Source: a virus. From it: a stretch of 62,754 nucleotides of DNA. Under the pieces are notes generated by a model that was given only the letters and a program-made list of their open reading frames with translations, made no database searches and was not told where the DNA came from. The DNA lies in the IMG/VR virus record IMGVR_UViG_3300025324_000001, positions 1-62,754 of that record. One strand, given 5' to 3'. This document shows positions 8,906 through 62,754 of the stretch, one piece after another (positions within the stretch are counted from its first letter, which is position 1; each line of letters begins with the position of its first letter). A program made the position numbers and the translations under genes.

Positions 8906-9331
8906 CTATCGGTCAGTAATTAGTTTGCTGCCCTTCTTGAGTCTAGGGATATACCCGTCCTCGATCTTGATTTCAGGGTCGATCTTACCCTTCCAGAAGA
9001 TTAAGCCTTCTCCTTGAGGACTTAGACCAAGAGTAAAGTGCGTAGCCCTCGACTTTTTACCTCCAACAACCTCCGGAAAGTCGACCGCGTTCGTTAGAAA
9101 GGCTGAATCATCCTCGATTGTTGTGCCTGTCAGACTTCGAGCGATTGCGGTACGACGATATCCCGGATAGTCCACTTCGCTCGAGGACTGCTTATTGTCC
9201 TCAGGAAGTTTGGTATGTAGTGAGAGGTACAAACTTGCCGAAGCTTGCTGTACGTTCGCGGCGACTCCTGGAATCGCATCTCCGTGAAGAATCAGTCGCA
9301 GTTGAGCGTTTGCAAAGCCGACACTTTTCAT
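8906..9331 (-). CDS. Conserved phage protein, paralog A of 8382..8825
   Basis: 141 aa. Same motif series (LYLSLHTKLPED...EVDYPGYRR...NAVDFPEV...THFTLGL). Its start overlaps the portal stop. Confidence 0.55.
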   Translation of the reverse strand: MKSVGFANAQLRLILHGDAIPGVAANVQQASASLYLSLHTKLPEDNKQSSSEVDYPGYRRTAIARSLTGTTIEDDSAFLTNAVDFPEVVGGKKSRATHFTLGLSPQGEGLIFWKGKIDPEIKIEDGYIPRLKKGSKLITDR

Positions 9332-10902
9332 GACTGTCTCCCTTCAGTAGGAGCAGATACTGATATGGGCAGTGGACGTTCGATATAACGGACGACATTC
9401 CCTTCGTCGTCCTTCTCGACGACACGTTCCATTGCGATGGGTGGCGGCAATTGGAGTACTATTGGACGACGCTCCGACGTCTGTGGCGAAGCGTCTACCG
9501 CTTGACGAGAGGGCTCGGGACGATCCTCTTGAGACGGGTTGATACCTCCATTGCCTTGAGAAGTAGTCTTCTCAGGAGCTTTCGGAAAGAGCTCGTTGTC
9601 CGGAATCTCCCGTTTAACTCCGATAATTTCGCGAGCTTCCTCGTCTGAAATGATCGGATTACCAAACTGGTTGCGGCGAGAAAGGTTCGAAACAGCTCGA
9701 CCTTTGGAGGCAAGAGCATTTGACTCTTCCAGAGGACTCATGTGAAAAGCTTCAGGCCATTCAAATACACTTTCCTTAGTGCCAAAACGCACTTTCTCAG
9801 TGGATCCCTCCGGCAAATACCCCAAATCCTCCAGCTTCTGAAGGGTTGGCTTGAGAATGTAAGGCTCACCAAATACGCGCCGACGGCGCTCGATATACTC
9901 CGACCAGTTCGCTCGATCTTGCTCCGAAGCGAGCTGGCCAGCTTCGGATCCTGTGAGAATTCGCTGCGGAATCGAGGTAGTTCCTGCTAAAGTGGCGATC
10001 AAAACCTCGAAAACGCCGCGGGGATCAGCAACTTCTGAGCCTAAAGGCGTCACTTTTACTCCTCGGGTACGGATATACCGGCGGAGTTCGTGCTGAAACT
10101 CGTCCAATTCGTCCTGAAGAGCCGCTGCATCACCCGGTGCGAGGTCCATACTCTTGTCGATATCGACTTGCATCCCCCGGTTAGCAGTGAGCCAATAGAG
10201 TTCTGCGCTACCTCCACCGACCTTCAGTAGGTCTTCGAGAACGTTGTACACTTGCTGTAGTCGAGGCTCGCCAAACATCAAGCCCTGCAGAGGACGGTCG
10301 ACGATATGAACGACTCTAGAGTGATGCACTTGAACTGTTTTTTGCTGACCTTGAGGTCCCACTTTGACCTCATAGAGAATAGGCTGTCCATATCTCGAGT
10401 CGTCCGTACGTTCCTCGTAAGTCTTGATCTTCACAGCATCGGCACCGTACGCCTGAAGATAGAAGATGTCGTCCAAACTCGAGACCTTCGGCGCTGGTTT
10501 CTCAGAAATGCCACGCATTCCGAGCCATAGAAGTGCAAAAGGCCCGAAAGCACAGAGCTTATCGACTTGAATCACACGTTCCCAGAAGTTGATCTTCGAG
10601 GTGAAGGCGTCCCACTTATCTTTCGCACCGCGAAGCTCCGTTAGAGTTGGAGGTCTCGACCACATCTCTTCTGGAGGCATATCGACGATTCTGCTCGTGA
10701 TATCTTGCCTCTGATACTTCGCAAGCATGTGCTCCGATGTCAGAATGCTTGGGTAGCCGAATACATCGTACAGTTTCCTCTTACCAGAGAACTGCAGACC
10801 TGCTCGTGTCGCGAGCATCATTCGGTCAAAGAGGTTACTCGCAGCGGCCTTGATTTTCTGCGGGACATCAACTCGAGCTGGTTTCTTCTCGATCGTCGCC
10901 AT
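9328..10902 (-). CDS. Portal protein (DUF1073 / HI1409-type)
   Basis: 524 aa. The N-terminal DRMMLATRAGLQFSGKRKLYDVFGYP pattern is typical of DUF1073 portals. It lies immediately downstream of TerL. Confidence 0.8.
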   Translation of the reverse strand: MATIEKKPARVDVPQKIKAAASNLFDRMMLATRAGLQFSGKRKLYDVFGYPSILTSEHMLAKYQRQDITSRIVDMPPEEMWSRPPTLTELRGAKDKWDAFTSKINFWERVIQVDKLCAFGPFALLWLGMRGISEKPAPKVSSLDDIFYLQAYGADAVKIKTYEERTDDSRYGQPILYEVKVGPQGQQKTVQVHHSRVVHIVDRPLQGLMFGEPRLQQVYNVLEDLLKVGGGSAELYWLTANRGMQVDIDKSMDLAPGDAAALQDELDEFQHELRRYIRTRGVKVTPLGSEVADPRGVFEVLIATLAGTTSIPQRILTGSEAGQLASEQDRANWSEYIERRRRVFGEPYILKPTLQKLEDLGYLPEGSTEKVRFGTKESVFEWPEAFHMSPLEESNALASKGRAVSNLSRRNQFGNPIISDEEAREIIGVKREIPDNELFPKAPEKTTSQGNGGINPSQEDRPEPSRQAVDASPQTSERRPIVLQLPPPIAMERVVEKDDEGNVVRYIERPLPISVSAPTEGRQS

Positions 10903-12485
10903 TACGAACTCCTCAAGTCAGATGAGCGGCCCCAAGTAACTCCGATGCGTTGTTGAGCTCCAATTCCGCGGATAGTCTGTGGATCGATCGATTCTCGTCC
11001 CCAAGTAGGGACGAGAATCTTAGTCTGATGCAAATAGTTGAACCCTTGACCAACGGAGTCAACAGTATCGTCGTGCCTTCCGGCGGGAAAATCTTTCAGC
11101 TCGTTCTTATGCGTTTCGTTCCAGGAGGCTTTAAGCAGCCGAATCCGCCCGTGAGAAACTGCGGCTACGTATGGCTGGTTGCGAATCCACTTATTCTCTC
11201 CGCCGGGGGAATTGATTATTACCCGGAAACCTCTGAGTACGTTCGTAGCAAAGTGCTCGGCTGCGATCTTTCCGGATGCTCCAGGCTCCTGCTCAATAAC
11301 AATCGGAACATCTATGCCGTCCGCTTCTGCAATTTTGCGAACTACATCTTCTAGATCGCCTGGCTTCCAGCGATCGCGCTGCATATCTGCAATGTAGGTG
11401 GCCGCAAAAGTTGATCCCGGACGACCATCCGCTCCTACGAGAGATCCCACAGACCAGTCGGACTTCTTCTTTTTTCTGTCACTAGCTGCAAAGTCCCAGG
11501 AACGTACCCAACGGAGGAGCTTTGGACTTGGAATTACATCGACCTCTTTGAGCATCTCGACGTTGGCTTTGGCGTCCCCTACCTTCTTCGGGTTTTGTTG
11601 GTACATAGCCGAGAAGATGAAGTCGCCCATGATAGATTCAATCGCTCGGAGCTTGCTAATGGGGTATCGATCCGCCCATAGAGGCTCACCGATCGGACGG
11701 TTGAGAAGGTCGTTCTCCTCTGCTATTGCAGGCAGTCGGATCACAGTCCACATGTTCTCTTTGTCCTGTTCAATCAGACGGCCGATTAAGTCATTGATTA
11801 CCCATCTAGTAGCGAGAATCACACAGGAGCCACCAGGTTCTAGACGCGTATACGCCGTGGTGATAAACCAGTTCCAGATCGACTCCAGCACCAGATCACT
11901 GCTGGCTTCAGCCCAATTCTTGATGTAGTCGTCGACCACGAGCAAATGAGCACCGCGCCCTGTGATGGGGCCTCCAATCCCAACTGAAGCCATACCTCCG
12001 CCTTCAGTTGTGAGGAATTGATCTGTTCGTTGTACATCGTCTCGAAGACGCGTCCTGAGGAACTGGCCGTCGTCAAGGAGAAAGGAGTCCCGAACACGAC
12101 GACCAAAACCAGTAGCCAAGTCAGCAGCGTATGTGGAGAGGATGACACTAGCCCAAGGAAAGTGTTCCAGGAACCAGATTGGCGTGTGGACACTGATAAG
12201 CTCCGATTTGCCGTGTCGAGGAGGGAACTCAACAATGATTCGTGCATCACCAATTGAAATCTCGTGAGCAAGAATGCTACTCACATATAGCAGGTGCTCA
12301 GCTGGATGCCAGCGTCCTCCTGTACGGTAGTGAGCCATTGTAGCTGGTGTGAGCTTGACCGCTTCCTGGAACTCCTTCGAGCGAGGGTCGAGAATACCCT
12401 CGACTGCAAGTTGTAGCTCCGAGTCCGGAGGTAACTCGTTCGGATCGAACGCAGGATTCTCAGGAAGTGTATTATTGATTAGCAC
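10902..12485 (-). CDS. terL: Terminase large subunit
   Basis: 527 aa. Walker A-like FPPRHGKSE, Walker B LLVVDDY, C-terminal nuclease-like half. Followed by the portal gene. Confidence 0.9.
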   Translation of the reverse strand: MLINNTLPENPAFDPNELPPDSELQLAVEGILDPRSKEFQEAVKLTPATMAHYRTGGRWHPAEHLLYVSSILAHEISIGDARIIVEFPPRHGKSELISVHTPIWFLEHFPWASVILSTYAADLATGFGRRVRDSFLLDDGQFLRTRLRDDVQRTDQFLTTEGGGMASVGIGGPITGRGAHLLVVDDYIKNWAEASSDLVLESIWNWFITTAYTRLEPGGSCVILATRWVINDLIGRLIEQDKENMWTVIRLPAIAEENDLLNRPIGEPLWADRYPISKLRAIESIMGDFIFSAMYQQNPKKVGDAKANVEMLKEVDVIPSPKLLRWVRSWDFAASDRKKKKSDWSVGSLVGADGRPGSTFAATYIADMQRDRWKPGDLEDVVRKIAEADGIDVPIVIEQEPGASGKIAAEHFATNVLRGFRVIINSPGGENKWIRNQPYVAAVSHGRIRLLKASWNETHKNELKDFPAGRHDDTVDSVGQGFNYLHQTKILVPTWGRESIDPQTIRGIGAQQRIGVTWGRSSDLRSS

Positions 12486-13591
12486 TAGCCAACCTTCTGT
12501 TGACCTTCCGGCTCGTCGGCACTATCCAGGTTCTCTCCGGGAGCTCCGGTAACATCGAAAGGGATTAAGTCCTCCCCGTTGATGATCTCGTTTGTACGCC
12601 CTCTTCCTTTGAACCTTCGAGCTGGCGCTCCTGCAAAAGGATTGTCCAGAGAGGATCCCTGTGTTTGAGTGCTCTTGGCGACGCGGATCACAAGCTCTTG
12701 CATTTGTTGAGCGGCCTCAGGGTCTGCTAATACGCGGGAGAGGATCTGGCGGCCTGCTACTTGACGGCCAGCCTCATCATAGGTGTTTCCTTGTCCCTGT
12801 CCAAGCTTAGAGCCCAACGTCCGGAGAATCATCTCGAACGTCATGTCTTCAGGGGTTTCTTTCTGGCTCAGAGGCCCAGCAGCTGGGAGGCCAACGCTTA
12901 CACGTTGTGCTGCGATGAGACGCGCAAGAAGGTCGACAGCAGTCTTCGCAGACATGTTATCGAAGAATGCCGGTGTCTCGAGAACCTTCTCCTTGAGATT
13001 CCTTAGCAGATTGCTAGCGAGTGTATAGTGCTCATCCTCGACGGTCATTTGTCTGCGAAGACGGAGGTGACGATAAGCAGCCTCCTTGTAGAGGTCGTGT
13101 GCTTTGGCTCTTGCGCGCCAGTAGTACAGGATGCTGAACTCATACAACTGTCGCCCGAGCTGAGTAGATGGGACTCTTTGACCTTCCGAGAGACCTTGAA
13201 CTTGACTGGCGATTCGGATGAGCTCTTCGTTCTGCGCAAGTTGCGTCAGTTCTCGCGGACCCTCGTTGAGGGAGTCGAGATAGATCTGAAATGCACCGTA
13301 CGCGAAGCCGGGTTCGAACTCGAGTTTATGCCAGAAAGGGCGACCATCTCCTAGTGTGGGGTACCCATGTTCGAAGCTCAGATCGACATACGCGCTGCGG
13401 AGACTATGTGCTTCTACTTCGGGTTTCTCGTATGTAGTGGGGAGAAGATCGACACGGTAGTACCCAACTGGGAGACCTTCAGCTGTGACGGGGATGTGGC
13501 CGAAGGCCCTTTGCAGTAGAATGGCTCTATAAGGAAGAGGAAAGCCTGAGGTGCTAGCTGGTGCCGTTGCTACTTGATCAGGAGCGCCCAT
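12485..13591 (-). CDS. Unknown 368-aa protein at the terminase small subunit position
   Basis: First gene of the packaging operon, with a 1-nt overlap with terL. I recognise no motif; the TerS assignment rests on position only. Confidence 0.3.
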   Translation of the reverse strand: MGAPDQVATAPASTSGFPLPYRAILLQRAFGHIPVTAEGLPVGYYRVDLLPTTYEKPEVEAHSLRSAYVDLSFEHGYPTLGDGRPFWHKLEFEPGFAYGAFQIYLDSLNEGPRELTQLAQNEELIRIASQVQGLSEGQRVPSTQLGRQLYEFSILYYWRARAKAHDLYKEAAYRHLRLRRQMTVEDEHYTLASNLLRNLKEKVLETPAFFDNMSAKTAVDLLARLIAAQRVSVGLPAAGPLSQKETPEDMTFEMILRTLGSKLGQGQGNTYDEAGRQVAGRQILSRVLADPEAAQQMQELVIRVAKSTQTQGSSLDNPFAGAPARRFKGRGRTNEIINGEDLIPFDVTGAPGENLDSADEPEGQQKVG

Positions 13592-13597
13592 GTCTCA

Positions 13598-13644
13598 ATT
13601 ATAAGTCACTTCTAAGGGATAGTCACTGGGAATTTGATGGTCTC
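13598..13644 (-). promoter_or_regulatory. Promoter P8 (GTGACT-17-TATAAT) with upstream GAGACCATCAAA box; the -10 ends 6 nt before the ATG (leaderless geometry)
   Basis: Minus strand reads GAGACCATCAAAttcccaGTGACTatcccttagaagtgactTATAATtgagacATG. Confidence 0.5.
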
Positions 13645-13780: not shown

Positions 13781-13809
13781 TTGCCATCCTATTAGGAGGG
13801 TGTTATAAT
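13781..13809 (+). promoter_or_regulatory. Sigma70-like promoter (TTGCCA-17-TATAAT) for the plus-strand module
   Basis: Reads gagTTGCCAtcctattaggagggtgtTATAATataggtatg, divergent from P8. Confidence 0.65.
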
Positions 13810-13815
13810 ATAGGT

Positions 13816-13851
13816 ATGATGAATAGTTCATCATCCTACTTGAATAGTAGG
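13816..13851 (+). promoter_or_regulatory. Two palindromes in the 5' leader (ATGATGAA-tag-TTCATCAT; CCTACT-tgaat-AGTAGG): operator or leader hairpins
   Basis: Perfect 8-bp and 6-bp inverted repeats between the -10 and the RBS of 13870..14085. Confidence 0.4.
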
Positions 13852-13869
13852 TAACGATTAGGAGGTTGT

Positions 13870-14085
13870 ATGAAGCAAGCTCAAGCTCAACCTACGACTC
13901 CTGCAAGTCAAGAGTTTGATGCAGCGAAGTTCGTACAAGAAGTAGGAACAAAGTCGGCTGCGATTCGCAGACTGACTGCAGAAGGAAAGACGAGGTCGGA
14001 AGTTGCAAAGATGCTCGGGATCAGGTACCAACACGTAAGGAATGTCCTGATCACTCCGATCAAGAAAGAAGCAGTCAAGAAGTAG
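13870..14085 (+). CDS. Small HTH DNA-binding protein, paralog 1 (71 aa)
   Basis: Strong RBS aggaggttgtATG. The HTH-like TRSEVAKMLGIRYQHVRNVL is shared with 15013..15378. Confidence 0.7.
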   Translation: MKQAQAQPTTPASQEFDAAKFVQEVGTKSAAIRRLTAEGKTRSEVAKMLGIRYQHVRNVLITPIKKEAVKK

Positions 14086-14091
14086 ATGGGT

Positions 14092-14119
14092 GGGGAGGTC
14101 GAGAGACCTCCCCTTTATC
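14092..14119 (+). terminator. Rho-independent terminator
   Basis: ggggaggtc-gaga-gacctcccc followed by tttatca, 7 nt after the stop codon. Confidence 0.7.
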
Positions 14120-14147
14120 AACGTAGCACAATAGAGGAGTAGTCACG

Positions 14148-14297
14148 ATGCTAGTCACACGTCAACCTCACCAACTCCACAATGCTCGGGCCTTGCTCGA
14201 GTGGAAGGGTCCTGGTGCAGCTGCGCGGTACATGAGGTTCTGCGGCTGGTCGCTGCAGGCAGCCTTGTGGTGGCTCCTAGGTGTAGGAGCTCGGTAG
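14148..14297 (+). CDS. Hypothetical small protein (49 aa)
   Basis: ORF below the track cut-off. RBS agaggagtagtcacgATG. Translation: MLVTRQPHQLHNARALLEWKGPGAAARYMRFCGWSLQAALWWLLGVGAR. Confidence 0.3.
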   Translation: MLVTRQPHQLHNARALLEWKGPGAAARYMRFCGWSLQAALWWLLGVGAR

Positions 14298-14376
14298 GAC
14301 GTAGCTAGAGCCTGGTGTGAGCAGGCTCCATGGTACGCTCTGCACACCGCAGATGCGACCGTACTAGGAGACTGAC

Positions 14377-14622
14377 ATGGAAGTACTTAGGCTCAGTATC
14401 AAAGACGCTCGGCTGGTGGAGAAGCTGGCGGATGGGACGTTGGAGATCGAGCTTCTCCACGTAACCCCGATTCGGATCCCTCCCGAGTTTTCGGAAGCCC
14501 TTCACAAGGACTTGACGGAACAGGGGGTCACCCATAAGAACGCGGACAGACTGGTGGACACAGCAATGGATGCGATCCACGAGGAGTCCGTAATCCAAGT
14601 TCTCCGGGATCGCACATCCTAG
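14377..14622 (+). CDS. Hypothetical protein (81 aa)
   Basis: RBS taggagactgacATG. Followed by a UUCG-loop hairpin. Confidence 0.55.
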   Translation: MEVLRLSIKDARLVEKLADGTLEIELLHVTPIRIPPEFSEALHKDLTEQGVTHKNADRLVDTAMDAIHEESVIQVLRDRTS

Positions 14623-14633
14623 GGAGGGATCAG

Positions 14634-14655
14634 AGAAAGGGCTTCGGCCCTTTCT
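14634..14655 (+). terminator. Stable UUCG-tetraloop hairpin (terminator-like; weak U tract)
   Basis: agaaagggc-ttcg-gccctttct, 12 nt after the stop of 14377..14622. Confidence 0.5.
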
Positions 14656-14876
14656 TGCTACTTCCGGGGGACCGGGCGGACCAGTCCGTCCAACCCACGA
14701 GTACTCCTTCGGAGGCCTGGTCCCCGCCCGAGCGCTATAAGCCTAGCCCTCGCGACCGCTGAAGCCAAGGGACCGGTCATGTATAAGATATAGGACTAGT
14801 CCGACCGAGCGCTCAGAGCCTAGCCCGTGCAAATCTCGGGACGGTAAAATCATATAGGCGCCCATATGATGACCTC

Positions 14877-14906
14877 TTGCTACCATACTATGGACTACTA
14901 TATAAT
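14877..14906 (+). promoter_or_regulatory. Sigma70-like promoter (TTGCTA-18-TATAAT) for HTH paralog 2
   Basis: Reads ctcTTGCTAccatactatggactactaTATAATataggtg. It has the same GGACTACTA-TATAAT-ATAGGT context as other promoters. Confidence 0.65.
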
Positions 14907-15012
14907 ATAGGTGTAAGCTGGTTGATTGTAGGGGTGGTGAAGTTGATCCGCCAGCTACCGCCGAGCATGTTGCTCGGTGACAAGCGCTCTTTAACATAGT
15001 CGGAGGTTTACC

Positions 15013-15378
15013 ATGGCGAAAACCGCCAAGCAACAGGCAGTGCAGAAGCAGGCCCCGCAACCGCAACCGGCCCCGGCAGTTCAGACGCCGCAGGTCGCGA
15101 CGGTCCCGATGGAAGCGCCCAAGATGGAGGGCGTAACCGCCGAGAACTTCACGACCCACAAGGCGGAAGACCTCATCAAAGGGTTCGGCAACAAGAGCAA
15201 CGCGATCCGCGGCCTCGCGGCGCTGGGCATCAAGCCCGGCCCGATCTCGAAGCACCTCGGCATTCGCTACCAGCACGCGAGGAACGTCCTCTCGCGACCG
15301 CTGAAGCGGGTGATCAAGGAGCAGCGCGACAACGCGAGCCAGGGCGCAGTGCCCGGAGTAGCCACCGTCCAGAAGTAA
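15013..15378 (+). CDS. Small HTH DNA-binding protein, paralog 2 (121 aa) with a PQ-rich N-terminal tail
   Basis: RBS cggaggtttaccATG. Contains PISKHLGIRYQHARNVL. The N-terminus reads QKQAPQPQPAPAVQTPQ. Confidence 0.7.
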   Translation: MAKTAKQQAVQKQAPQPQPAPAVQTPQVATVPMEAPKMEGVTAENFTTHKAEDLIKGFGNKSNAIRGLAALGIKPGPISKHLGIRYQHARNVLSRPLKRVIKEQRDNASQGAVPGVATVQK

Positions 15379-15387
15379 GGCGGTGGT

Positions 15388-15459
15388 ATGAAAGCTCTCG
15401 CATACGGAGCTTTCGTCGGAATCCTGATCGTAATGGCCATTATCTGGTACATACGATAG
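15388..15459 (+). CDS. Possible 23-aa hydrophobic micro-protein (MKALAYGAFVGILIVMAIIWYIR)
   Basis: ATG 10 nt after the HTH2 stop. One predicted TM helix. Followed by the hairpin at 15482..15503. No homology evidence. Confidence 0.25.
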   Translation: MKALAYGAFVGILIVMAIIWYIR

Positions 15460-15481
15460 CCAGGATCCGATGAGTTAGATG

Positions 15482-15503
15482 GGAGGAGGTTGCGGCCTCC
15501 TCC
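15482..15503 (+). terminator. 8-bp GC hairpin (ggaggagg-ttgcgg-cctcctcc), terminator/attenuator-like
   Basis: Perfect stem followed by agtttcc. It overlaps the far-upstream alternative start of the next ORF. Confidence 0.4.
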
Positions 15504-15538
15504 AGTTTCCAACCTGCAAGACGCAAAAGGAGCCTGCA

Positions 15539-15736
15539 ATGGCCAAGCAACAGTTCAGCGTCAAGATGCGACCGGATCGTACGACTCCGGGAACGTTTCT
15601 CTACGCGGTTCCGTCCGATCAACGGGCGGATGCCGCGGTGAAGAACGTGTACATCTCGAAGGATGCGTTCGGTGCGATGAGTGCCCCTCCTGGGGAGATC
15701 ACCATCACGGTCGCGTACGACGACGGCAAGAAGTAA
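15539..15736 (+). CDS. Hypothetical protein (65 aa)
   Basis: I prefer the internal start with RBS aaaaggagcctgcaATG over the track start at 15479, which lies in the hairpin. Confidence 0.55.
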   Translation: MAKQQFSVKMRPDRTTPGTFLYAVPSDQRADAAVKNVYISKDAFGAMSAPPGEITITVAYDDGKK

Positions 15737-15748
15737 GCCGGCGGCAGT

Positions 15749-15793
15749 GGAGCGGAACTCCTACGAGAGTGGGGTTCCGCTCCTCTTCTTTTT
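15749..15793 (+). terminator. Rho-independent terminator closing the plus-strand module
   Basis: ggagcggaac...gttccgctcc followed by tcttcttttt. Confidence 0.7.
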
Positions 15794-15920
15794 GCGGCTT
15801 AGGGACTGGTCAGTCCTACTATAGGGACCGGTCGCCCGCATCTCAGAGCTGCTCCCTAAGTCGGGCCCTCGATTGGCTTCCCGCAGTTTCCTAGTTGCTA
15901 CCATCAACTGACTACAAAAC

Positions 15921-16197
15921 GAAGTAACGAAGTCAACTCTTCCCGAAGTTCTAACTAGTTGATTTTTAACGGCTTTAGTAGTTTAGTAGTTTGGGTTCGT
16001 AATTACTCTAAGTGATCAAAAGTATTGGGGGGATTACCTTTAGGAATTTCGGTATATCAAACGGACTAATGTTGCCTATGTCCAATCCTTCCCCAACTTC
16101 TAACCACTTAAGAGATTAGGAAGTCAAACTACTAAACTACTAAATCCCTATAAAATCAACTAGTTACAACTGAGGGAGCAGTTTACTTCGTTACTTC
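15921..16197. repeat. 277-bp imperfect palindrome (arms 15921..16014 and 16105..16197) with TAGTAGTT doublets and AACTAGTT cores
   Basis: Arm segments are reverse complements by direct reading: gaagtaacgaagt/acttcgttacttc, ctaactagttgatttt/aaaatcaactagtta, tttagtagtttagtagtttg/caaactactaaactactaaa. Confidence 0.85.
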
Positions 16198-16331
16198 CTT
16201 TGATAGTCCGCATCATCCCCATTACTCCCTTCCTCACCCTCATCTTCTTGCTTTTGCTTCACTCTCAAACTTGGGTACTCTGGACAGAAGGTGTCGTACT
16301 TCCTAACAGGTTTCTCATCATCTGGAACCAC
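16191..16331 (-). CDS. Possible 46-aa acidic protein, last ORF of the minus-strand array
   Basis: GTG start after aaggtaag. Translation: VVPDDEKPVRKYDTFCPEYPSLRVKQKQEDEGEEGSNGDDADYQRK. Its stop lies inside the right palindrome arm. Confidence 0.25.
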   Translation of the reverse strand: MVPDDEKPVRKYDTFCPEYPSLRVKQKQEDEGEEGSNGDDADYQRK

Positions 16332-19170: not shown

Positions 19171-19187
19171 AATTGGCCTCCTTGTGT

Positions 19188-19206
19188 GCTAGCAACATGC
19201 TAGCAT
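19188..19206. promoter_or_regulatory. Twin TGCTAGCA palindromes (operator candidate) between the P9 -10 and the RBS
   Basis: Reads tgctagca-aca-tgctagca. Each octamer is self-complementary. Confidence 0.45.
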
Positions 19207-22162: not shown

Positions 22163-22354
22163 TCAGTAAGTCCTCACGTAAGTAACTATACGCCGCATTC
22201 CGAGCTTTTGCAATATCTCACTGCTCGGCTCTGTTTTTGAGCCGTTCTGTAAACGGCTGAGGTAGCCGACGTCAATTTGGAGCTCTCTAGCCGCAGCTCG
22301 TAGTGAGCCGTGCTGTTTAGCTAACTCCTGGATACGAGCGCTAAGTCTATTCAC
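22163..22354 (-). CDS. XRE-type HTH protein (63 aa)
   Basis: Start refined to GTG (VNRLSARIQELA...). The HTH reads SLRAAARELQIDVGYLSRLQNG. Confidence 0.55.
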   Translation of the reverse strand: MNRLSARIQELAKQHGSLRAAARELQIDVGYLSRLQNGSKTEPSSEILQKLGMRRIVTYVRTY

Positions 22355-22592
22355 TTCCCCGCCTCTCCGCGTCGGCGTCGAGGGCGGCGTCGAGTGCTTC
22401 CATGTATACGCAAGGATGATTTTCTGGGCGCAGTAATCGTAGCCACCGATACCGCTCCGCATCCTTGCCGTCCCTCATCCCCCGCAGCGCGAGGTCGGCG
22501 ATTGCTCTGCGGAAGGCTGCGCTACTCATGCGAGCGGCATACAGCCCCGTGCGTGCATAGACCTCGATATCCTGCTCGGTTAGATTAGCCAT
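22347..22592 (-). CDS. Hypothetical protein (81 aa)
   Basis: ORF overlapping both neighbours. Confidence 0.5.
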   Translation of the reverse strand: MANLTEQDIEVYARTGLYAARMSSAAFRRAIADLALRGMRDGKDAERYRWLRLLRPENHPCVYMEALDAALDADAERRGSE

Positions 22593-24887: not shown

Positions 24888-25622
24888 CTAGCTTAGATGC
24901 TTGCTCTGGTACTCTTGATCGAACAGCTTGTATGTTCTGGGAAAGTGCTGGGCAACAAGAACGCCTACAGCACAAGCAAACATACGGATCTCCAGCTGAG
25001 CTCCGGGGTCCATCCGTAGGGTCAGAAACGCGAGCCAGTTACGGAGACACGCTGACGCGCGCATTCTGCTGTAGCGTCCGACAGCAAGCGTAATTCGAGA
25101 GACTTCCTTTGGGACCCCCATCTCTAGACCATCCGCGTAGAGCTCCTGAATCATCCCATACATATGCTTCAAGCGAGCGCACCAAGTCTCCACCTCCGAG
25201 AGACTCGGCACTTTCAGAACCGCGCCTCGAGCCTGTTTGTTCTTTGTACTTGCAGCAGAGACAGCTCTCTCGTGAATATGCTCAGGTAACGGCAAGTAGT
25301 CGAGCTCAGGCAAAGGAGCATAGCGCGCCGACATCTCGTTGTAGCTCTGAGTCCGATGGCGATGCCATTCCCGGAAAACAAAGATTGGTGCCTGGACTTC
25401 GATTACCATCCCAGCGAACTCAAACGGGGTAGCATGTTTGGGATCGTTACAGTACAAGAAGCGGAGTAGCTTCTCATCGAGCTCCCACCCCCGAAACGAT
25501 CCCTGCGTCGACTGCCGGGCTGCCTCGATGATTCCTGCTTCGGGCTCGCCAGCATCGCCTTTCCCCCAGACCTCGACTAGGCGAACAAACCCGTGATCTA
25601 GGACGTTGATCTTAGCTTCCAT
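24888..25622 (-). CDS. thyX: FAD-dependent thymidylate synthase ThyX
   Basis: ThyX signature RHRTQSYNEMSARY. Start refined to MEAKINVLDHGF with RBS aggaggcaactATG. Confidence 0.85.
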   Translation of the reverse strand: MEAKINVLDHGFVRLVEVWGKGDAGEPEAGIIEAARQSTQGSFRGWELDEKLLRFLYCNDPKHATPFEFAGMVIEVQAPIFVFREWHRHRTQSYNEMSARYAPLPELDYLPLPEHIHERAVSAASTKNKQARGAVLKVPSLSEVETWCARLKHMYGMIQELYADGLEMGVPKEVSRITLAVGRYSRMRASACLRNWLAFLTLRMDPGAQLEIRMFACAVGVLVAQHFPRTYKLFDQEYQSKHLS

Positions 25623-25635
25623 AGTTGCCTCCTGC

Positions 25636-26274
25636 TCAGTTGTTCGGAATTTGCAAGTAGCGGATGCCTTTGCCAGCATCTTCGGCATACTGGATCTCGG
25701 AGTGAGTCGAGTCACCGACGTAGCCGTCAACATTTAGGACAAAGATCTCATCCGAGAGGTCTATCTTACGCTTATGCAGTTCGTCGAGCAGAGCCTTCTG
25801 CTCATTGTTGAGAGAAGGCCTCGTGACACCAGCTTCAGCGTGGTGCCAGAATCCTACGGTAAGTACGATGTTGCCCTTCATCGTCTCATCGTACTGAGCT
25901 TGGAGGAACTCCTCCTTGAATCTGGTCGAACCACATAGGCAAACGACCTTCGGAGGCAGTAAATCATTTAGAGCCCCCAGTTGGTCGATAGTCATCATTG
26001 CGAGTGCCGTAACGTCCCCCGCCTCGTAGAGACATTCCAGCATGTTCTCCAGAGTAACTTTATCCTCGGCGTTATTGGCAGCCTTCTGGAGCTCCCTGGC
26101 TTCTTCCGCAAGCTTCTCGTCCAGGAAACTGCCAGGGACTTTGTGCCAATCTCTCTGGCCTGAGGAGTCGAAGCCTCTCTCTGGCCACTTCAGCGCCTTA
26201 TAGCGGTTCTTGTGGATCTTTTGGCAAGCCGCAATCGCTACGGCTCGGAGCTTCTGCATAACTGGTATTGACAT
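25636..26274 (-). CDS. Two-domain protein: MazG-like all-alpha NTP pyrophosphohydrolase plus nucleoside 2-deoxyribosyltransferase-like Rossmann domain (putative)
   Basis: The N-terminal half has LAEEARELQKA...LYEAGDVTALAMM. The C-terminal half has VVCLCGSTRFKEEF...LDELHKRKIDLSDEIFVLN. Confidence 0.45.
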   Translation of the reverse strand: MSIPVMQKLRAVAIAACQKIHKNRYKALKWPERGFDSSGQRDWHKVPGSFLDEKLAEEARELQKAANNAEDKVTLENMLECLYEAGDVTALAMMTIDQLGALNDLLPPKVVCLCGSTRFKEEFLQAQYDETMKGNIVLTVGFWHHAEAGVTRPSLNNEQKALLDELHKRKIDLSDEIFVLNVDGYVGDSTHSEIQYAEDAGKGIRYLQIPNN

Positions 26275-32659: not shown

Positions 32660-33289
32660 CTATGTCTTGCTTTCCAGTCTCACAAGCTGGAAGAATTCGT
32701 CCTTTGCTGCTGGAACATCCCGGAAGAGACCTCTGAGAGTCGAAGTGGACGTCGGAGTGTCATGCACTTGTACTCCGCGCCCCGTCATGCAGCCATGATC
32801 GGCTTTGATCACCACCATTACACCTTTTGCTCTGAGCCGACTCATCAGAATGTCAGCAACGAGGTCTGTACACGTTTCCTGCATCCGAGGCATCTCGTGG
32901 CCGACAGCTGCAACGATTCGGGTGAGCTTCGAGATTCCCACGAGTCTCTCTGTAGGAATATAACCAATATGGCATATTCCTAGAACTGGCAAGAGATGGT
33001 GAGGACAGATCGTACGAAAGGGAATATTACTCTGGACCACCATCCCCTTGTAGCCCTGCTCAGAGTGAGTTGATGTGAAGTCGACCTTCAGAACCTCCCT
33101 CTCGTCGTATGGTCTGAGGTACTCTCGAAGGTACTTGACAAACCTCTCCGGAGTACCGTTGAAATTCTCGTCCATCAGATCAAACCCGAGAGTCTCGAGA
33201 ACCGCCGCCATCAAATTGGAGGCCTCTAGAATCGGACTTCCTTTTTTGCGCCTTGCCATTTGTTTCCCCTGCCTAATTGGTTTGGCCAT
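32660..33289 (-). CDS. folE: GTP cyclohydrolase I
   Basis: ICPHHLLPVLG and VVIKADHGCMTGRGV motifs. Confidence 0.85.
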   Translation of the reverse strand: MAKPIRQGKQMARRKKGSPILEASNLMAAVLETLGFDLMDENFNGTPERFVKYLREYLRPYDEREVLKVDFTSTHSEQGYKGMVVQSNIPFRTICPHHLLPVLGICHIGYIPTERLVGISKLTRIVAAVGHEMPRMQETCTDLVADILMSRLRAKGVMVVIKADHGCMTGRGVQVHDTPTSTSTLRGLFRDVPAAKDEFFQLVRLESKT

Positions 33290-34092
33290 TATGGTAGCCT
33301 TAAGAACTTGTGCAGTTGTAGACTAACACGGTAATTGTACTTCATCGCGAGTACTCCGCACAGCTGAATGTTACGCTGGGAGCGCTCTTCATCCCTTACT
33401 TGCTTAGTAAACTTCTGGTCGGACATCTCGTCCAGACTCAAAGCAAAGGCAGCAGGAATGTGAACAATGTTCTTGTACTCTTCACATGGCTGAAGCCATA
33501 TAGTGTTGTGGCTATATATTTCTGGCCGATAGAGCTTCAGCTTCTTTCCAGGCTCTTGAGTGCTCATAATCGGAAGACCATCGACTGGTGACACCTCCCC
33601 TTCCCGGATAAGATACTTCCAGTTCCAACAGTGCTGGGCAATCTTCTCGTGCACCTTTCCTGTCTTAGGGCTGCACACAATTGTCAAAGCGTCGATACCT
33701 ATGTAATCTTCTAGTCCTGGTACCCAAACAGTACCAGCCGTTTCGATCTGGATTCTGAACCCGAGGTCGCTCAACTTGTCACAGAGGAAAACAATGTTCT
33801 GAAGAAGTGGTTCTCCTCCAGTAACAACTACTAAGTCCGTCTCTGTAATCTTGTCCGTAGCAGCGTGTTCCTGAATTTCGCGGACGATAGAGTCGACGTT
33901 CATCGCTTTCTTGCGGCTCTCGAAGTCCGTATCGCAGAAGTGACATCGAAGGTTGCATCCTGCAAGCCGTAGGAAAACTGCAGGCTGACCAGTAAAAGGG
34001 CCTTCGCCTTGGATGGTGGAGAAGATACTCTGAACCTCCAGCTCGAGACCAGTACCGAGATGCTGTCTTCTAATTGGGTTCTTGCCGAACAC
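33289..34092 (-). CDS. queE: 7-carboxy-7-deazaguanine synthase (radical SAM)
   Basis: GEGPFTGQPAVFLRLAGCNLRCHFCDT. Confidence 0.85.
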   Translation of the reverse strand: MFGKNPIRRQHLGTGLELEVQSIFSTIQGEGPFTGQPAVFLRLAGCNLRCHFCDTDFESRKKAMNVDSIVREIQEHAATDKITETDLVVVTGGEPLLQNIVFLCDKLSDLGFRIQIETAGTVWVPGLEDYIGIDALTIVCSPKTGKVHEKIAQHCWNWKYLIREGEVSPVDGLPIMSTQEPGKKLKLYRPEIYSHNTIWLQPCEEYKNIVHIPAAFALSLDEMSDQKFTKQVRDEERSQRNIQLCGVLAMKYNYRVSLQLHKFLRLP

Positions 34093-34562
34093 TACAGCCC
34101 CCTCTCAAAGCGCCTCTTCACCAGCTCATCGATTAGAACGTCAGGAAGATTACTTGCTGAGGCAGAACACTTACGAGTCTCCTCCACCGACACTTTGATC
34201 AGAGCAACTCCTGTCCCTTCGAGCAGTTGAGGCCCCATAATCCGGAGAAGAAAATCTGCCATCTTCTCCGCGGTAGGATTAAAAGGTAGAATGACAACAG
34301 TTCCATCCAACGCCCGCAAAGGCTCTGCTAGAGGATCCTCTTGCCAGATAAGGAACTTATGATCCCAGTTATTCTCGAGCCACATACAGAGCCGGCTCTT
34401 GATCACTGAGAAGTCGAGTACTCGGCCAACAGTATCGAGCTCTGGGGAAGCACAAACGAAGTGAACTCGGTAGTTATGTCCGTGGAGATGTGCACATTTT
34501 GACTCGTGTCCAAACACACGGTGACCACACGAGATATCGTGATACCGCTCAGCGGTGATCAT
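34092..34562 (-). CDS. queD: 6-carboxy-5,6,7,8-tetrahydropterin synthase
   Basis: CAHLHGHNYRVHF motif; 156 aa. Confidence 0.8.
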   Translation of the reverse strand: MITAERYHDISCGHRVFGHESKCAHLHGHNYRVHFVCASPELDTVGRVLDFSVIKSRLCMWLENNWDHKFLIWQEDPLAEPLRALDGTVVILPFNPTAEKMADFLLRIMGPQLLEGTGVALIKVSVEETRKCSASASNLPDVLIDELVKRRFERGL

Positions 34563-34627
34563 TTTCTTTCCTCGGATAGTAGAGAGACCAGAGCATAAGC
34601 GCCAACCTAACCGCTGAAGCGAGCGGC

Positions 34628-35368
34628 TTAAGCTGCGGAGTAGACGGTGGGATCGACGACACCGGCCTTTGTAAAACCCGCCTTACGCGCACGACACGTT
34701 GGACACGTACCACAGTGCACCTCCCCACCTTTGTAACAACTCCACGTTAGATGCCAAGGCACACCAAGCTTCTGCCCTAGCTCCACAATCTCGTTCTTGT
34801 ACATCTCGATCAGAGGCGCTTTGAGCCGGATAGAGTGGTAAGTACCGATATAGACAGCCGCTGCCATTGCCCCGACGAAGTCGAGCCTGCAGTCCGGATA
34901 GGCGTCGCCAGCTGCATCTTCAGCATGTGCCCCGAAGTAGATCCGACCTTCCCACTTGGCGCCTGCGCCTACCACACTGGCAGCTCTTTTCGCAATCGCG
35001 ATGTTTCTGTTTATCTGCTCGATGCTATGAGCTGCAATCCCGGCGATCCGCGAAATGAGCTGACCGTTTCTGAATGGCACATACGTCGGACTCACTCCCT
35101 GGATCTCCTGATAGGAGATGTTCGGGACTTCAGCTGAAGGATCGGTAAGCATCACCTTCGGGATGCCAATAATCGGATGAATCTCGTGTACAACTGACAT
35201 GTAGTCGCACACCCTCTTTGCCATCTCCATCTCCTTCCGGTGCCGCTGACCGTAGTCGATCGAGATAGCGAGAACATTCTCGCGGCCGTAATCGCGAACT
35301 GCAACTGCTAAACAAGTCGAACTGTCGATACCCCCCGACAAGAGTACAAAGCCTTGAACTAAGTTCAC
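34628..35368 (-). CDS. queC: 7-cyano-7-deazaguanine (preQ0) synthase
   Basis: VLLSGGIDSSTC PP-loop and the C-terminal CYKGGEVHCGTCPTCRARK zinc motif. Confidence 0.85.
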   Translation of the reverse strand: MNLVQGFVLLSGGIDSSTCLAVAVRDYGRENVLAISIDYGQRHRKEMEMAKRVCDYMSVVHEIHPIIGIPKVMLTDPSAEVPNISYQEIQGVSPTYVPFRNGQLISRIAGIAAHSIEQINRNIAIAKRAASVVGAGAKWEGRIYFGAHAEDAAGDAYPDCRLDFVGAMAAAVYIGTYHSIRLKAPLIEMYKNEIVELGQKLGVPWHLTWSCYKGGEVHCGTCPTCRARKAGFTKAGVVDPTVYSAA

Positions 35369-38768: not shown

Positions 38769-38814
38769 ATTATATAGGCAACAAAAGACTGGTCACAAGT
38801 AGGAGACCATCAAA
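38769..38814 (-). promoter_or_regulatory. Sigma70-like promoter P4 (TTGTGA-18-TATAAT) with an inverted TTTGATGGTCTC box upstream
   Basis: Minus strand reads TTTGATGGTCTCctacTTGTGAccagtcttttgttgcctaTATAATaggatcattgaatagta. Confidence 0.6.
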
Positions 38815-41471: not shown

Positions 41472-41987
41472 TCAGCGTGAGTGCGAAGCCCTTCGGCGCC
41501 GTTGGCTGTGCGCTCCATCATATGCATCATAGATGGTGTATTGCTTCGGAGTCTCCTTGCGGAACATCTCTTGGAGACCCTTCACTATCTTAGGTACCTC
41601 AACATCCAGGTAGTGCTCGATACTTGGATTCTTGCCTCGCGGAGGCCGATCATCCACTAGGACGCCGTAATGCGCAGCGTCGATGATAATGCCAGCACAA
41701 CAACGGATATAGCCCATATGAGCTACCCGCGTCTTGCTATCTTGGTTGTCGCCAGCAAGAAACTTGAAGAGGTGGCGATAGATTGCAGCGAGGTAAACGC
41801 TTGCCTTTACCCGCTTCATACGCCAGTTGTACCGGCCGTACTTCTGCGCACCTTCATACCATGCAAGAGCCTCCTCGATGACTGCCGTCTCAGGGATCAA
41901 CGATGCGTCCAGCTTTAATTGTGCGAGGAGATCCTTCGGGTTGACGAGGTTGAAGTACGGATCCTTCGGACGATGTGTTTTGCTCAT
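41472..41987 (-). CDS. DUF5664-like protein (dATP/dGTP diphosphohydrolase N-terminal-domain family, putative)
   Basis: Start refined to MSKTHRPKDP (ATGA overlap with ruvC). Contains GAQKYGRYNW...AAIYRHL. Confidence 0.45.
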   Translation of the reverse strand: MSKTHRPKDPYFNLVNPKDLLAQLKLDASLIPETAVIEEALAWYEGAQKYGRYNWRMKRVKASVYLAAIYRHLFKFLAGDNQDSKTRVAHMGYIRCCAGIIIDAAHYGVLVDDRPPRGKNPSIEHYLDVEVPKIVKGLQEMFRKETPKQYTIYDAYDGAHSQRRRRASHSR

Positions 41988-42481
41988 GACCTTCCCCTTG
42001 GTTGGTGAACCTTCGCTACACTGAACAGAAGGTAGTAGCATGCATGCCGAATTGCATCACGCGCATGCTTCTGACCCTCCTGGTAGACGCCCCACGAACG
42101 AAGCTTGTCGTCCGTGCAAAATCCCTTAGCTTGTTGCGCCATCTGCTTGACTAGAGACACCTCGTTCAACTGGTAGTAGCAGATATACTCTGTAGCTCCA
42201 ATCAGTCTGGGAGTATGTAAACCTGCCCATGCATGATCCTTCGCCTTCCAGCTGTACACCCGATAGTCTTCAATGACTACCACCAAATCCGGAGTGCGAT
42301 AAGTTCGGATGTACTTCCAGACTTCCCAAGCAGCTTGAGGCATCAAACCCGTCGTAAGCTGCCGCGCATCAAGGAGGTCAGGACCTTCGAATACACAGGC
42401 TCCAGTAGTTTCACCTGGATCGAGCGCAAGAACTCGCTGCTTCGAGTCCTTGAGAGCCTCCCTAAGGAGGTTGCTGGACAT
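41984..42481 (-). CDS. ruvC: RuvC-like Holliday junction resolvase
   Basis: VLALDPGETTGA catalytic motif; 165 aa. Confidence 0.7.
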   Translation of the reverse strand: MSSNLLREALKDSKQRVLALDPGETTGACVFEGPDLLDARQLTTGLMPQAAWEVWKYIRTYRTPDLVVVIEDYRVYSWKAKDHAWAGLHTPRLIGATEYICYYQLNEVSLVKQMAQQAKGFCTDDKLRSWGVYQEGQKHARDAIRHACYYLLFSVAKVHQPRGRS

Positions 42482-42523
42482 AAAAAGCGTAGAGCGTCTA
42501 GGAGATCATCCTAGACGCTCTAC
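42482..42523 (-). terminator. Strong rho-independent terminator (14-bp stem plus T5) ending exactly at the ruvC ATG
   Basis: Minus strand reads gtagagcgtctagg-atgatct-cctagacgctctac-gctttttATG. Confidence 0.8.
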
Positions 42524-42583
42524 GGAGATCGAGCACCGTGCAGGGGGTGACGGCGCTCGGTCGGAGGCAATTCGCGCCTGGAG

Positions 42584-42832
42584 TTACTTCGCCGGCGCAA
42601 CAGCGGGGGCTGCTTCCTTCTTCGGCTTGGTTGCCGCGAAGACGATCTGGTACGGAACGCCGAGTTCTTTGGCGATCTCGCCCCGCTTCGCGCCTTCCGC
42701 GTAGCGCCTCTTGATGTAGTCGACGCGGCGTTCGCCGGAATCGAGCACGATCGCTGCGCCGATCTTCTTCGCGGCGGGCTGGGGCTGGACTTGCGGCTTC
42801 TGGGGCTGGACTTGCGGTTTCTGTGCGGCCAT
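42584..42832 (-). CDS. Small HTH DNA-binding protein, paralog 3 (82 aa) with PQ-repeat and AKP-rich tails
   Basis: RBS aaaggagacagtcATG. Contains KPQVQPQKPQVQPQP, GEIAKELGVPYQIVFAAT and a C-terminal KKEAAPAVAPAK. Confidence 0.65.
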   Translation of the reverse strand: MAAQKPQVQPQKPQVQPQPAAKKIGAAIVLDSGERRVDYIKRRYAEGAKRGEIAKELGVPYQIVFAATKPKKEAAPAVAPAK

Positions 42833-42893: not shown

Positions 42894-42940
42894 ATTATAG
42901 AGCATTTTTCAGACCCTTTCAACGGGTTTTTGATGGTCTC
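42894..42940 (-). promoter_or_regulatory. Sigma70-like promoter P5 (TTGAAA-17-TATAAT) with upstream GAGACCATCAAA box
   Basis: Minus strand reads GAGACCATCAAAaacccgTTGAAAgggtctgaaaaatgctcTATAATtcgg. Confidence 0.6.
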
Positions 42941-62326: not shown

Positions 62327-62743
62327 TTACGTGATTGGGACTCGATTTTCGCCGGCTTCCGCTGCCGGCAGTACTGTGAACCAGAAGTTGAGCGCGAACT
62401 GCGGCCGAGTAGTGTCGTCCTGTCCCAAATAAGCTACATCCCCCATCTGGTTACAGGAGCGATACATATCGCCCAACACTGTAGTGGACTCCATCCCCAA
62501 CAAAGCTGCTGCTACAGCAGCGGCTTTCAACCTTGCAGCCTCGTATCCACCTTTCGCGCCGCGCACGATAATGGAAACTGACGGCTCATTGTAGAGTAGG
62601 TGTGGAAAAGGATTCCTTCCGCCTGGGCTATTGATCAGGACGATCGTATCGGGTGCATCTGGCATCCTCCCGATTGCAGTTCTCCACCCTGTAGGTGGCT
62701 GTGGTGCGGCCGTAAGAAAGTTGCCGATGCCTTCTGCCACCAA
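62327..62743 (-). CDS. Tail terminator-like protein, putative
   Basis: 138 aa. Last neck-series gene before the major tail protein. Its start lies in the terminal repeat, so it follows 118..579 on the circle. Confidence 0.4.
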   Translation of the reverse strand: MVAEGIGNFLTAAPQPPTGWRTAIGRMPDAPDTIVLINSPGGRNPFPHLLYNEPSVSIIVRGAKGGYEAARLKAAAVAAALLGMESTTVLGDMYRSCNQMGDVAYLGQDDTTRPQFALNFWFTVLPAAEAGENRVPIT

Positions 62744-62754
62744 AATGTCCTTGA
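62656..62754. repeat. Terminal 99-bp exact direct repeat, copy 2 (identical to 1..99)
   Basis: Verbatim identity read base by base. Confidence 0.9.

Follow-up and report, generated by a model that had tools for sequence, protein, structure and literature searches.

The 62,754-nucleotide window analysed here, IMG/VR record IMGVR_UViG_3300025324_000001, represents a complete phage genome with a circular assembly of ~62,655 bp (positions 1–99 are identical to 62656–62754). A plus-strand module at 13.8–15.8 kb, divergent from the TerL packaging operon, encodes the small helix-turn-helix (HTH) proteins HTH1 and HTH2, and a third protein of this kind, HTH3, is encoded on the minus strand at 42584–42832. 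We found that the three proteins belong to one family, and that this family corresponds to the N-terminal domain of alphaproteobacterial VapB-type antitoxins, a kinship that goes beyond an earlier, first-pass annotation of the same sequence. The most likely job of the HTH proteins appears to be an ordinary one, early transcriptional control. In its specific form, namely that they act as early sequence-specific regulators of phage promoters, the proposal is tentative and we place it a little below an even chance.

A protein family shared with bacterial antitoxins

The relationship between HTH1 and HTH2 suggested in the first-pass annotation is upheld by alignment statistics, with a BLASTP E-value of 2e-14 and 49% identity over 49 residues. 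Comparison by hhalign of profiles built from 68 (HTH1), 57 (HTH2) and 51 (HTH3) homologues gave 99.8% for HTH1 and HTH2 (E 1.6e-28, 60 columns), 97% for HTH1 and HTH3 (E 1e-10, 28 columns) and 90.8% for HTH2 and HTH3 (E 1.2e-6). By these profiles HTH3, described previously as a third paralogue, is indeed a member of the family; it is however a distant one, sharing only the 28-residue HTH core. When the family hidden Markov models (HMMs) were run against all six-frame open reading frames (ORFs) of the window, only HTH1, HTH2 and HTH3 were found, with the next best match at E > 1. An XRE-type HTH_3 protein encoded at 22163–22462 is absent from these matches, hence the signal does not reflect generic HTH similarity. 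This 99-residue protein (minus strand; 23.3 bits versus a Pfam cut-off of 23) represents an unrelated fourth HTH regulator, and the earlier statement that the genome lacks a CI/Cro pair needs qualifying on its account. HTH1 itself scores 13.8 bits against the XRE/Cro-CI family HTH_3 (cut-off 23) and falls outside it.

The recognition helix of HTH1 and HTH2 is nearly invariant (RYQH[V/A]RNVL) and, as with the promoter element described below, its conservation extends as far as Brevundimonas phage MaInes. AlphaFold2 models computed with the family alignment place a five-helix core of HTH2 (residues 45–111, predicted local distance difference test scores of 87–97) between disordered tails, while HTH3 is predicted to form a beta-hairpin followed by three helices. 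Neither model contains a coiled-coil or an oligomerisation core. The first-pass annotation had left the role of the proteins open and, in line with this, no homology to a characterised regulator of known operator logic was detected: Pfam, PHROGs and NCBIfam return only sub-threshold generic HTH matches, and Foldseek searches with HTH2 and HTH3 against PDB and BFVD gave nothing at E ≤ 0.001. The top non-significant Foldseek neighbours are all DNA-bound HTH domains, of the sigma region 4, Spo0J/KorB, IstA, Hin/Sin/gamma-delta and LuxR types. Sub-threshold Pfam matches to the CENP-B_N/HTH_23/HTH_29/HTH_7 clan recur across the family, CENP-B_N being the commonest (31 of 68 HTH1-family and 15 of 51 HTH3-family members), followed by HTH_29, HTH_23 and HTH_7. 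Within this clan HTH1 reaches 18.2, 18.1 and 17.3 bits against cut-offs of 24.6, 28.1 and 21.2, and HTH3 reaches 18.4 and 16.7 bits against 23.8 and 21.2; HTH2 has no Pfam match. With respect to a small terminase subunit, the only PHROG match is a weak one (phrog_7067, E 0.011), and the HTH genes lie on the strand opposite TerL. A match to the 'CAP repeat' of PDB 8VD6 (E 3.8e-16) was discarded as an artefact, as this is a de novo designed repeat protein for which five weak HTH-like repeat matches are summed.

The number of homologues found was more than 210 for HTH1, 55 for HTH2 and 72 for HTH3. A HMMER search of 1.84 billion representatives yielded 2,522 family clusters at E ≤ 1e-3 and 946 at 1e-10, counted at 50% identity. 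Most members are 60–130 residues long, and some contain a tandem pair of HTH domains fused to a MazE/AbrB domain. No curated model for the family is present in Pfam, PHROGs or NCBIfam, nor is there a significant PDB match.

A scan for IRYQHVRN in one genome per species retrieved 132 bacterial loci, nearly all from Alphaproteobacteria. The bacterial proteins are mostly 143–218 residues long and consist of an N-terminal HTH followed by a SpoVT/AbrB-MazE domain and by a tail of conserved sequence (VSLVDELIAERRREA). A PIN-domain (VapC) gene directly follows the HTH-AbrB gene in 64 of 79 loci, with both PIN and MazE confirmed by Pfam, which identifies the bacterial proteins as antitoxins of the VapB type that carry an additional HTH at the N-terminus. 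An HMM built from 40 of these antitoxins matches HTH1 with E 1.5e-21 over HMM positions 7–63, i.e. the HTH only. The antitoxin HTH is ~55–70% identical to HTH1 over 40–55 residues, and the IRYQHVRNVL helix is identical. VapB-type antitoxins are autorepressors and specific operator binders, and the kinship shows the domain to occur where operator binding would be expected. It also points to alphaproteobacterial hosts for the phage clade, which probably infects Alphaproteobacteria. The toxin-binding tail was not found in the phage families (best E 2.4 with an HMM of the last 32 residues of the 40 bacterial homologues), and Pfam, PHROG and NCBIfam searches of the module ORFs revealed no PIN partner gene. 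The idea that the C-terminal helix of HTH2 mimics the toxin-binding tail was rejected, as the C-terminal HMM has no match there.

The same domain is found in other contexts. At one locus (L027, 3416–4156) it is fused to a Swt1-like HEPN domain (Pfam HEPN_Swt1, E 1.9e-28), and in L049 and L060 we take it, by eye, to be fused to a GIY-YIG-like domain, for which Pfam found no family in L060. These fusions hint that the domain may be used in defence-type proteins. In Hoeflea, Aurantimonas and Glycocaulis (L043, L079 and L087) the HTH-AbrB gene, together with the PIN gene where present, seems to have been inserted at one shared chromosomal place; the flanking genes presumably encode isovaleryl-CoA dehydrogenase and methylcrotonyl-CoA carboxylase, judging by eye.

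Candidate DNA elements and a possible role at phage promoters

About a dozen strong near-consensus sigma70-type promoters occur genome-wide on both strands, thus the module promoters do not form a special class by their hexamers. A set of minus-strand promoters (5421, 13626, 19242, 24589, 27158, 28926, 32640, 38798, 42922 and 45500) shares cTTGnnACC, TATATAAT and upstream GAC(C) repeats ~10–11 nt apart. Across 54 promoters from 15 loci, ACC/GAC peaks are located at −26, −16/−15, −5 and +5 relative to the start of the −35 hexamer, corresponding to one helical turn between peaks. The motif ACCATCA[AT]A is present six times, whereas its size and the length of the genome predict approximately one occurrence. 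All six lie directly against the −35 of a strong promoter, among them the promoters of HTH3 and of the packaging operon; at 38806 the motif is inverted. The same element is found in relatives, for instance in L018 (GTCGACCATCATTTTGACAC-TTGATT), and MaInes has it too. The HTH1 promoter P1 has no upstream GACC box, and the HTH2 promoter P2 has a palindromic variant.

A second candidate element is GGACnnGTCC, whose only two copies in the window (14678 and 14793) fall in the non-coding spacer of the module. Over 13 loci, 23 copies were counted within plus-strand modules, against none in the 131 kb that lie elsewhere. This specificity for the module throughout the clade is a further point that goes beyond the first-pass annotation. 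At the loci inspected by eye, the element is positioned ~10–25 nt past a terminator and ~70–125 nt before the next cassette promoter. GGACnnGTCC and the GAC(C) boxes share a GGACC-like half-site.

Two further sequences put forward in the first-pass annotation, TGCTAGCA and TGAATAGT, did not hold as protein sites: they form arms or loops of 5′ RNA stem-loops in which the structure is kept and the sequence is not. Post-promoter palindromes were likewise rejected as HTH operators, given that their sequences differ while the recognition helix is invariant, that G·U pairs are tolerated and that compensatory changes occur; an interpretation as 5′ RNA stem-loops suits them better than one as protein operators. 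At several promoters (window 19187–19205; ~7700 and ~9980 in L009; ~10680 in L012), the transcripts are predicted to open with a stem-loop of the form GCUAGCA-UGU-UGCUAGC. In stem-loops of this type the UGU loop is conserved, and G·U and compensatory pairs are seen between phages. Their probable role is that of 5′ stabilising or recognition hairpins.

Of the roles suggested in the first-pass annotation, that of a temporal or regulatory switch would be the best fit. We propose a model in which HTH1 would be made first, by host RNA polymerase, from the factor-independent near-consensus P1 with its extended −10. HTH1 and HTH2 would then occupy the conserved candidate sites at phage promoters, i.e. 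the GAC(C) repeats beside or through the −35, those of the packaging operon and HTH3 included, and GGACnnGTCC between the module cassettes. Such occupancy would govern when, or how strongly, middle and late genes are transcribed and would feed back on the module itself, with TM23 and ORF65, which are encoded in the HTH2 cassette, as accessory early products. Early and independent expression is suggested by the strong promoters and terminators and by the lack at P1 of the upstream box of the other promoters. The direction of the effect, activation or repression, is not readable from sequence, and repression would be equally possible.

Several observations weigh against this model. The putative link between the proteins and either DNA element is one of co-occurrence only, and GGACnnGTCC is absent from L016, L017, L023 and L024, which keep the HTH genes. 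The phased GACC repeats could be read by host RNA polymerase, through sigma or the C-terminal domain of the alpha subunit, or by another phage protein such as the XRE-type HTH protein at 22163–22462. The box promoters already possess good −35 and −10 hexamers, hence activation is not obviously needed. The recognition helix of HTH3 (PYQIVFAATK) is unlike that of HTH1 and HTH2 and less polar, so that HTH3 may do something else; perhaps it has a separate role linked to replication. Furthermore, the closest cellular relatives are antitoxins, leaving a host-directed role possible.

In such a role, HTH1 and HTH2 would copy the VapB operator-binding domain and bind host DNA early, at vapBC operators or other promoters, serving takeover or counter-defence with TM23 and ORF65 as further takeover factors. 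We consider this rather unlikely. It draws on the antitoxin HMM match to HTH1, on the 132 bacterial loci with their directly following PIN genes, on the HEPN_Swt1 and by-eye GIY-YIG-like fusions that place the domain in defence-type proteins, and on the resemblance of the module, with its tiny genes, strong promoters and membrane peptide, to a takeover block. The phage proteins, however, have neither the AbrB domain nor the toxin-binding tail (C-terminal HMM E > 2) and thus cannot neutralise VapC directly, and repressing a toxin-antitoxin operon would free the toxin, from which the phage would not obviously profit. For the k-mers that are overrepresented upstream of bacterial vapB genes (TAGGTA, TAGTTA and ATAGTA), enrichment in the module is only 2–4 fold, and their transfer to it was rejected as confounded by AT-rich promoters and Shine-Dalgarno sites. 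A bolder combination, which we hold to be unlikely, is that the IRYQH(V/A)RNVL family reads a clade-wide 'promoter code' of phased GAC(C) and GGACnnGTCC with the same domain as the host HTH-AbrB VapB operator binders, so that, through the phage proteins, control of the temporal programme of the phage would be coupled to interference at the toxin-antitoxin operators of the host.

Two other explanations concern DNA architecture. A large inverted repeat (15910–16208; 94-nt arms, 83% complementary, 111-nt spacer), with tandem 8-mers AACGAAGT and TTTAGTAG in each arm, lies directly after the module, at the meeting point of plus- and minus-strand transcription; its conservation extends to L007, L009, L011, L012 and L014. 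It could be an origin, packaging site or terminator element. That the HTH proteins bind this 300-bp repeat and the 8-mer iterons in it, or else an ori or pac site in the vicinity of the packaging operon, with HTH3 acting alongside the primase-helicase in replication initiation, seems to us improbable. The fixed place of HTH3 between a DUF3854 primase-helicase gene and a ~170-residue RuvC-like gene, its own promoter and terminator, its weak likeness to the KorB/ParB operator-binding HTH and the fact that no small terminase subunit was identified in the genome by PHROGs/Pfam annotation of the window proteins would be in keeping with it. Against it, L001, L017 and L018 keep HTH1 and HTH2, yet the 3 kb that follow the HTH2 homologue showed no such repeat. 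In view of these more distant relatives we do not favour the earlier suggestion that the proteins bind the adjacent palindrome, although it is possible. The proteins are also too small and have no oligomerisation domain, and hence do not look like TerS, and no iteron-like copies of the palindrome motifs are found near HTH3. Weakest, and in our view highly improbable, is a histone-like or nucleoid role, in which the low-complexity tails would serve to coat or compact 7-deazaguanine-modified phage DNA. The genome does encode FolE, QueD, QueE-like and QueC proteins for deazaguanine synthesis, the strong promoter and very strong terminator of HTH3 suggest high expression, and the 14-residue A/K/P-rich C-tail of HTH3 contains 4 Lys (29%). 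This is however the only Lys-rich tail. The PQ repeats described previously are present, but the tails are approximately neutral in charge, so that 'histone-tail-like' overstates their character: the N-tail of HTH2 has 9% Lys and a net charge of +1 over 44 residues, the family median is 0 to +1, and the basic charge of the family is located in the folded HTH core. Across the family the tails consist mainly of Ala, Pro, Gln, Val and Thr, with variable sequence and length (~20–110 residues for the N-tail). An assignment as histone H1-like or AKP nucleoid tails was rejected on composition and charge, as these are not long, strongly basic Lys/Ala/Pro tails; the Ala/Pro/Gln tails are, to judge by their composition, flexible linkers. 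The nearly invariant polar recognition helix (R, Q, H, R, N) would be expected for specific rather than bulk binding, and the bacterial relatives, being antitoxins, are of a kind known to bind specific operators.

Organisation of the module, the HTH3 locus and the genome

The view of the module as the sole plus-strand block is borne out by ORF maps of the window; the module is, as described before, insulated and divergently transcribed, and its coordinates and two strong promoters are confirmed. The gap in long minus-strand ORFs at 17.5–19.2 kb is tiled by small minus-strand genes, leaving the module as the only convincing plus-strand block. Its synteny, divergent from the TerL operon, is kept at every related locus examined. 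The first-pass annotation had further listed four hairpin terminators, three of which are convincing while the third in order (T3) is weak, and a gene content that stands for HTH1, ORF81, HTH2, TM23 and ORF65 with the exception of ORF49. Hairpin z scores below express stability versus shuffled controls.

The divergent promoter of the packaging operon (368-residue gene, TerL, portal) is located at 13598–13641 (−), with a ACCATCAAA box at 13633–13641, a −35 GTGACT at 13621–13626 and a −10 TATAAT at 13598–13603. P1 of HTH1 (13781–13809, +) reads TTGCCA-17-TGtTATAAT, with an extended −10 and 11 of 12 consensus matches. Its spacer holds the near-palindrome CCATCCTAtTAGGAGGG (13784–13800), which is perfect in L012. 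The HTH1 leader (13816–13851, +) contains two 5′ stem-loops, ATGATGAAtagTTCATCAT and CCTACTtgaatAGTAGG (z −2.8), and relatives retain hairpins of different sequence in this leader. HTH1 itself (13870–14085, +; 71 residues) is a free-standing HTH domain, GTKSAAIRRLTAEGKTRSEVAKMLGIRYQHVRNVLITPIKK. HTH1-type genes are present in one to three copies per related locus, always upstream of HTH2. The first cassette ends with terminator T1 (14092–14113, +), a 9-bp GC-rich stem of −20 kcal/mol (z −3.8).

ORF49 (14148–14297, +) is a doubtful gene, as it has no homologue in any relative outside the identical phage fragment L006, and was rejected as unsupported. ORF81 (14377–14622, +) encodes a small protein with no Pfam, PHROG or NCBIfam match and, among the related phage loci, is kept in L009/L010 only (40% identity). 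Terminator T2 follows at 14633–14656 (+), with a 10-bp stem and UUCG loop (−22.7 kcal/mol, z −3.3). The non-coding spacer between the cassettes (14678–14802) contains the two GGACnnGTCC copies, GGACCAGTCC at 14678–14687 and GGACTAGTCC at 14793–14802. A direct repeat of 26 nt (14724/14801) lies in the same spacer, as does TATAAG at 14782, which resembles a degenerate promoter. This promoter-like sequence, TATAAGATATAGG, adjoins GGACTAGTCC at 14782–14802. A complete promoter stands at the equivalent position in L012 and L014, where it drives a middle cassette of variable content, hence the sequence may be the remnant of a lost cassette. The three-cassette layout recurs in L012, whose middle cassette is made up of other small genes. 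Rfam searches (gathering threshold for the whole window, E ≤ 1 on 13.5–16.3 kb) and a tRNA scan gave no match, thus the GC-rich spacer of the module matches no known RNA family.

The palindrome ATCATAT-N8-ATATGAT (14849–14870), a variant of the clade-wide upstream promoter element, lies just upstream of the −35 of P2 (14877–14906, +; TTGCTA-18-TATAAT, 10 of 12 matches). The 5′ leader of HTH2 (14907–15012, +) is structured, with compensatory changes in 7 of 20 predicted pairs across 8 orthologous leaders. HTH2 (15013–15378, +; 121 residues) has a disordered A/P/Q N-tail and a short disordered C-tail on either side of its core. TM23 (15388–15459, +) encodes a 23-residue single-pass membrane peptide and starts 10 nt past the HTH2 stop. 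A gene for a membrane peptide of 23–29 residues begins 4–17 nt past that stop in 9 of 12 loci examined, and the pattern M(K/W)(A/G)L..G...G......W..R is seen across 9 related loci. Hairpin T3 (15482–15503, +), between TM23 and ORF65, has a z of −1.5 and a weak T tail; its position is kept in relatives. ORF65 (15539–15736, +), a small and probably beta-rich protein, is encoded after HTH2 in every close relative. The public gene call of L001 at 10423–10767 (−) is on the wrong strand, and the ORF at 10390–10662 (+) is the ORF65 homologue. Terminator T4 (15749–15783, +; −34.7 kcal/mol, z −4.6), followed by a T-run, closes the module. The ORFs of the module other than the HTH genes have no Pfam, PHROG or NCBIfam match.

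The HTH3 promoter (42894–42937, −) consists of a ACCATCAAA box at 42929–42937, TTGAAA at 42917–42922 and TATAAT at 42894–42899, with an identical layout in L020. HTH3 (42584–42832, −; 82 residues) combines A/P/Q/K tails with the beta-hairpin and three-helix HTH, core ERRVDYIKRRYAEGAKRGEIAKELGVPYQIVFAATK. The N-terminal KPQVQPQ repeat is due to a 21-nt tandem duplication (42779–42823, 2.1 copies, 95% match). The HTH3 terminator (42488–42524, −; −29.4 kcal/mol, z −7.7) has a stem of 16 bp, correcting the 14 bp given previously. In every case the gene is situated between the genes for the DUF3854 primase-helicase and the ~170-residue protein of RuvC-like appearance. The HTH3 profile matches the KorB operator-binding domain with E 0.004, over profile residues ~48–69.

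The minus strand of the genome holds nearly all genes, including TerL (10902–12485) and portal (9328–10902), both assigned by PHROGs, ribonucleotide reductase and DNA polymerase. Additional products are a ligase, ThyX, an SNF2 helicase, the DUF3854 primase-helicase, FolE, QueD, a QueE-like radical-SAM protein and QueC. The 368-residue protein (12485–13591, −), encoded directly upstream of TerL, is clade-wide and without family assignment. FolE (GTP cyclohydrolase I), the radical-SAM QueE-like protein, QueD (PTPS) and QueC are encoded in a row (regions 32660–35368, 41472–42041 and 24888–25733), and a dATP/dGTP diphosphohydrolase-like protein is encoded in the genome, as is ThyX. The phage probably swaps G for a 7-deazaguanine derivative; no DpdA/TGT was identified in its genome. 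There is no DNA-level match of the window to deposited phages. The closest isolates by TerL (~35% identity) are the Brevundimonas phages vB_BpoS-MaInes and StAshley, the only isolated relatives within a clade of ~60–70 kb phages, and the single paper naming these two phages does not treat the module genes.

Relation to known regulatory systems

The analysis defines a large protein family that has no curated name and that characterises the presumed early module in a clade of environmental phages, and links it to the DNA-binding portion of a VapB antitoxin type that is widespread in Alphaproteobacteria. The phased GAC(C) boxes, GGACnnGTCC and the 5′ RNA stem-loops are concrete cis elements that offer a way into the phage transcription programme. 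If the proteins are ordinary early regulators, the gain is mainly one of better annotation.

The nearest known system is that of the alphaproteobacterial VapB antitoxins, an uncharacterised subfamily in which the same domain as in HTH1 is followed by SpoVT/AbrB-MazE and a tail, upstream of PIN/VapC. The phage proteins, in contrast, are free-standing, with neither AbrB/MazE nor toxin-binding tail nor a PIN partner in the module, and HTH2 adds its own N-terminal motif and C-terminal helix. The best recurrent Pfam matches are to the Psq/CENP-B_N, HTH_23/HTH_29 and HTH_7 types (Hin/resolvase, IS630/IS21 transposase), and IstA, Hin, Sin and gamma-delta are structural neighbours; the scores (16.7–18.4 bits) nevertheless remain below the cut-offs (21.2–28.1 bits), and there is no recombinase or transposase catalytic domain. 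Bacillus phage SPO1 has a host-takeover module and the TF1 protein, and H1-like AKP tails are known from AlgP and Hc1. Reminiscent of SPO1 is the clustering, in a phage whose DNA is probably modified, of tiny and presumably early genes equipped with strong promoters and terminators. In contrast to SPO1, TF1, AlgP and Hc1, there is no homology, the tails are neutral rather than lysine-rich, and the proteins are of the HTH and not the HU type.

KorA and KorB of plasmid RK2 are small HTH global repressors with operators beside or near the −35 of many operons. The phage likewise combines small HTH proteins with genome-wide strong promoters carrying a conserved element next to the −35, and HTH3 aligns with KorB in Foldseek (39% identity, root-mean-square deviation 1.1 Å, 31 residues), in addition to the profile match at E 0.004. 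HTH3 differs from KorB in having no ParB/CTPase N-domain or dimerisation domain (by Pfam; 82 residues), the weak match being limited to the helix-turn-helix, and the phage promoter element consists of phased direct repeats, unlike the KorB palindrome. T4 MotA, Mu Mor and C, lambda CII and PhoB/OmpR, the last with phased direct repeats, are regulators whose action is exerted beside or across the −35. We detected no relation to these in sequence or fold, and the phage promoters keep good −35 hexamers. The proposed logic is nevertheless alike, with an early small DNA-binding protein that would read repeats beside the −35 of later promoters, and the one-turn spacing of the GAC(C) boxes resembles that of pho-box-type arrays.

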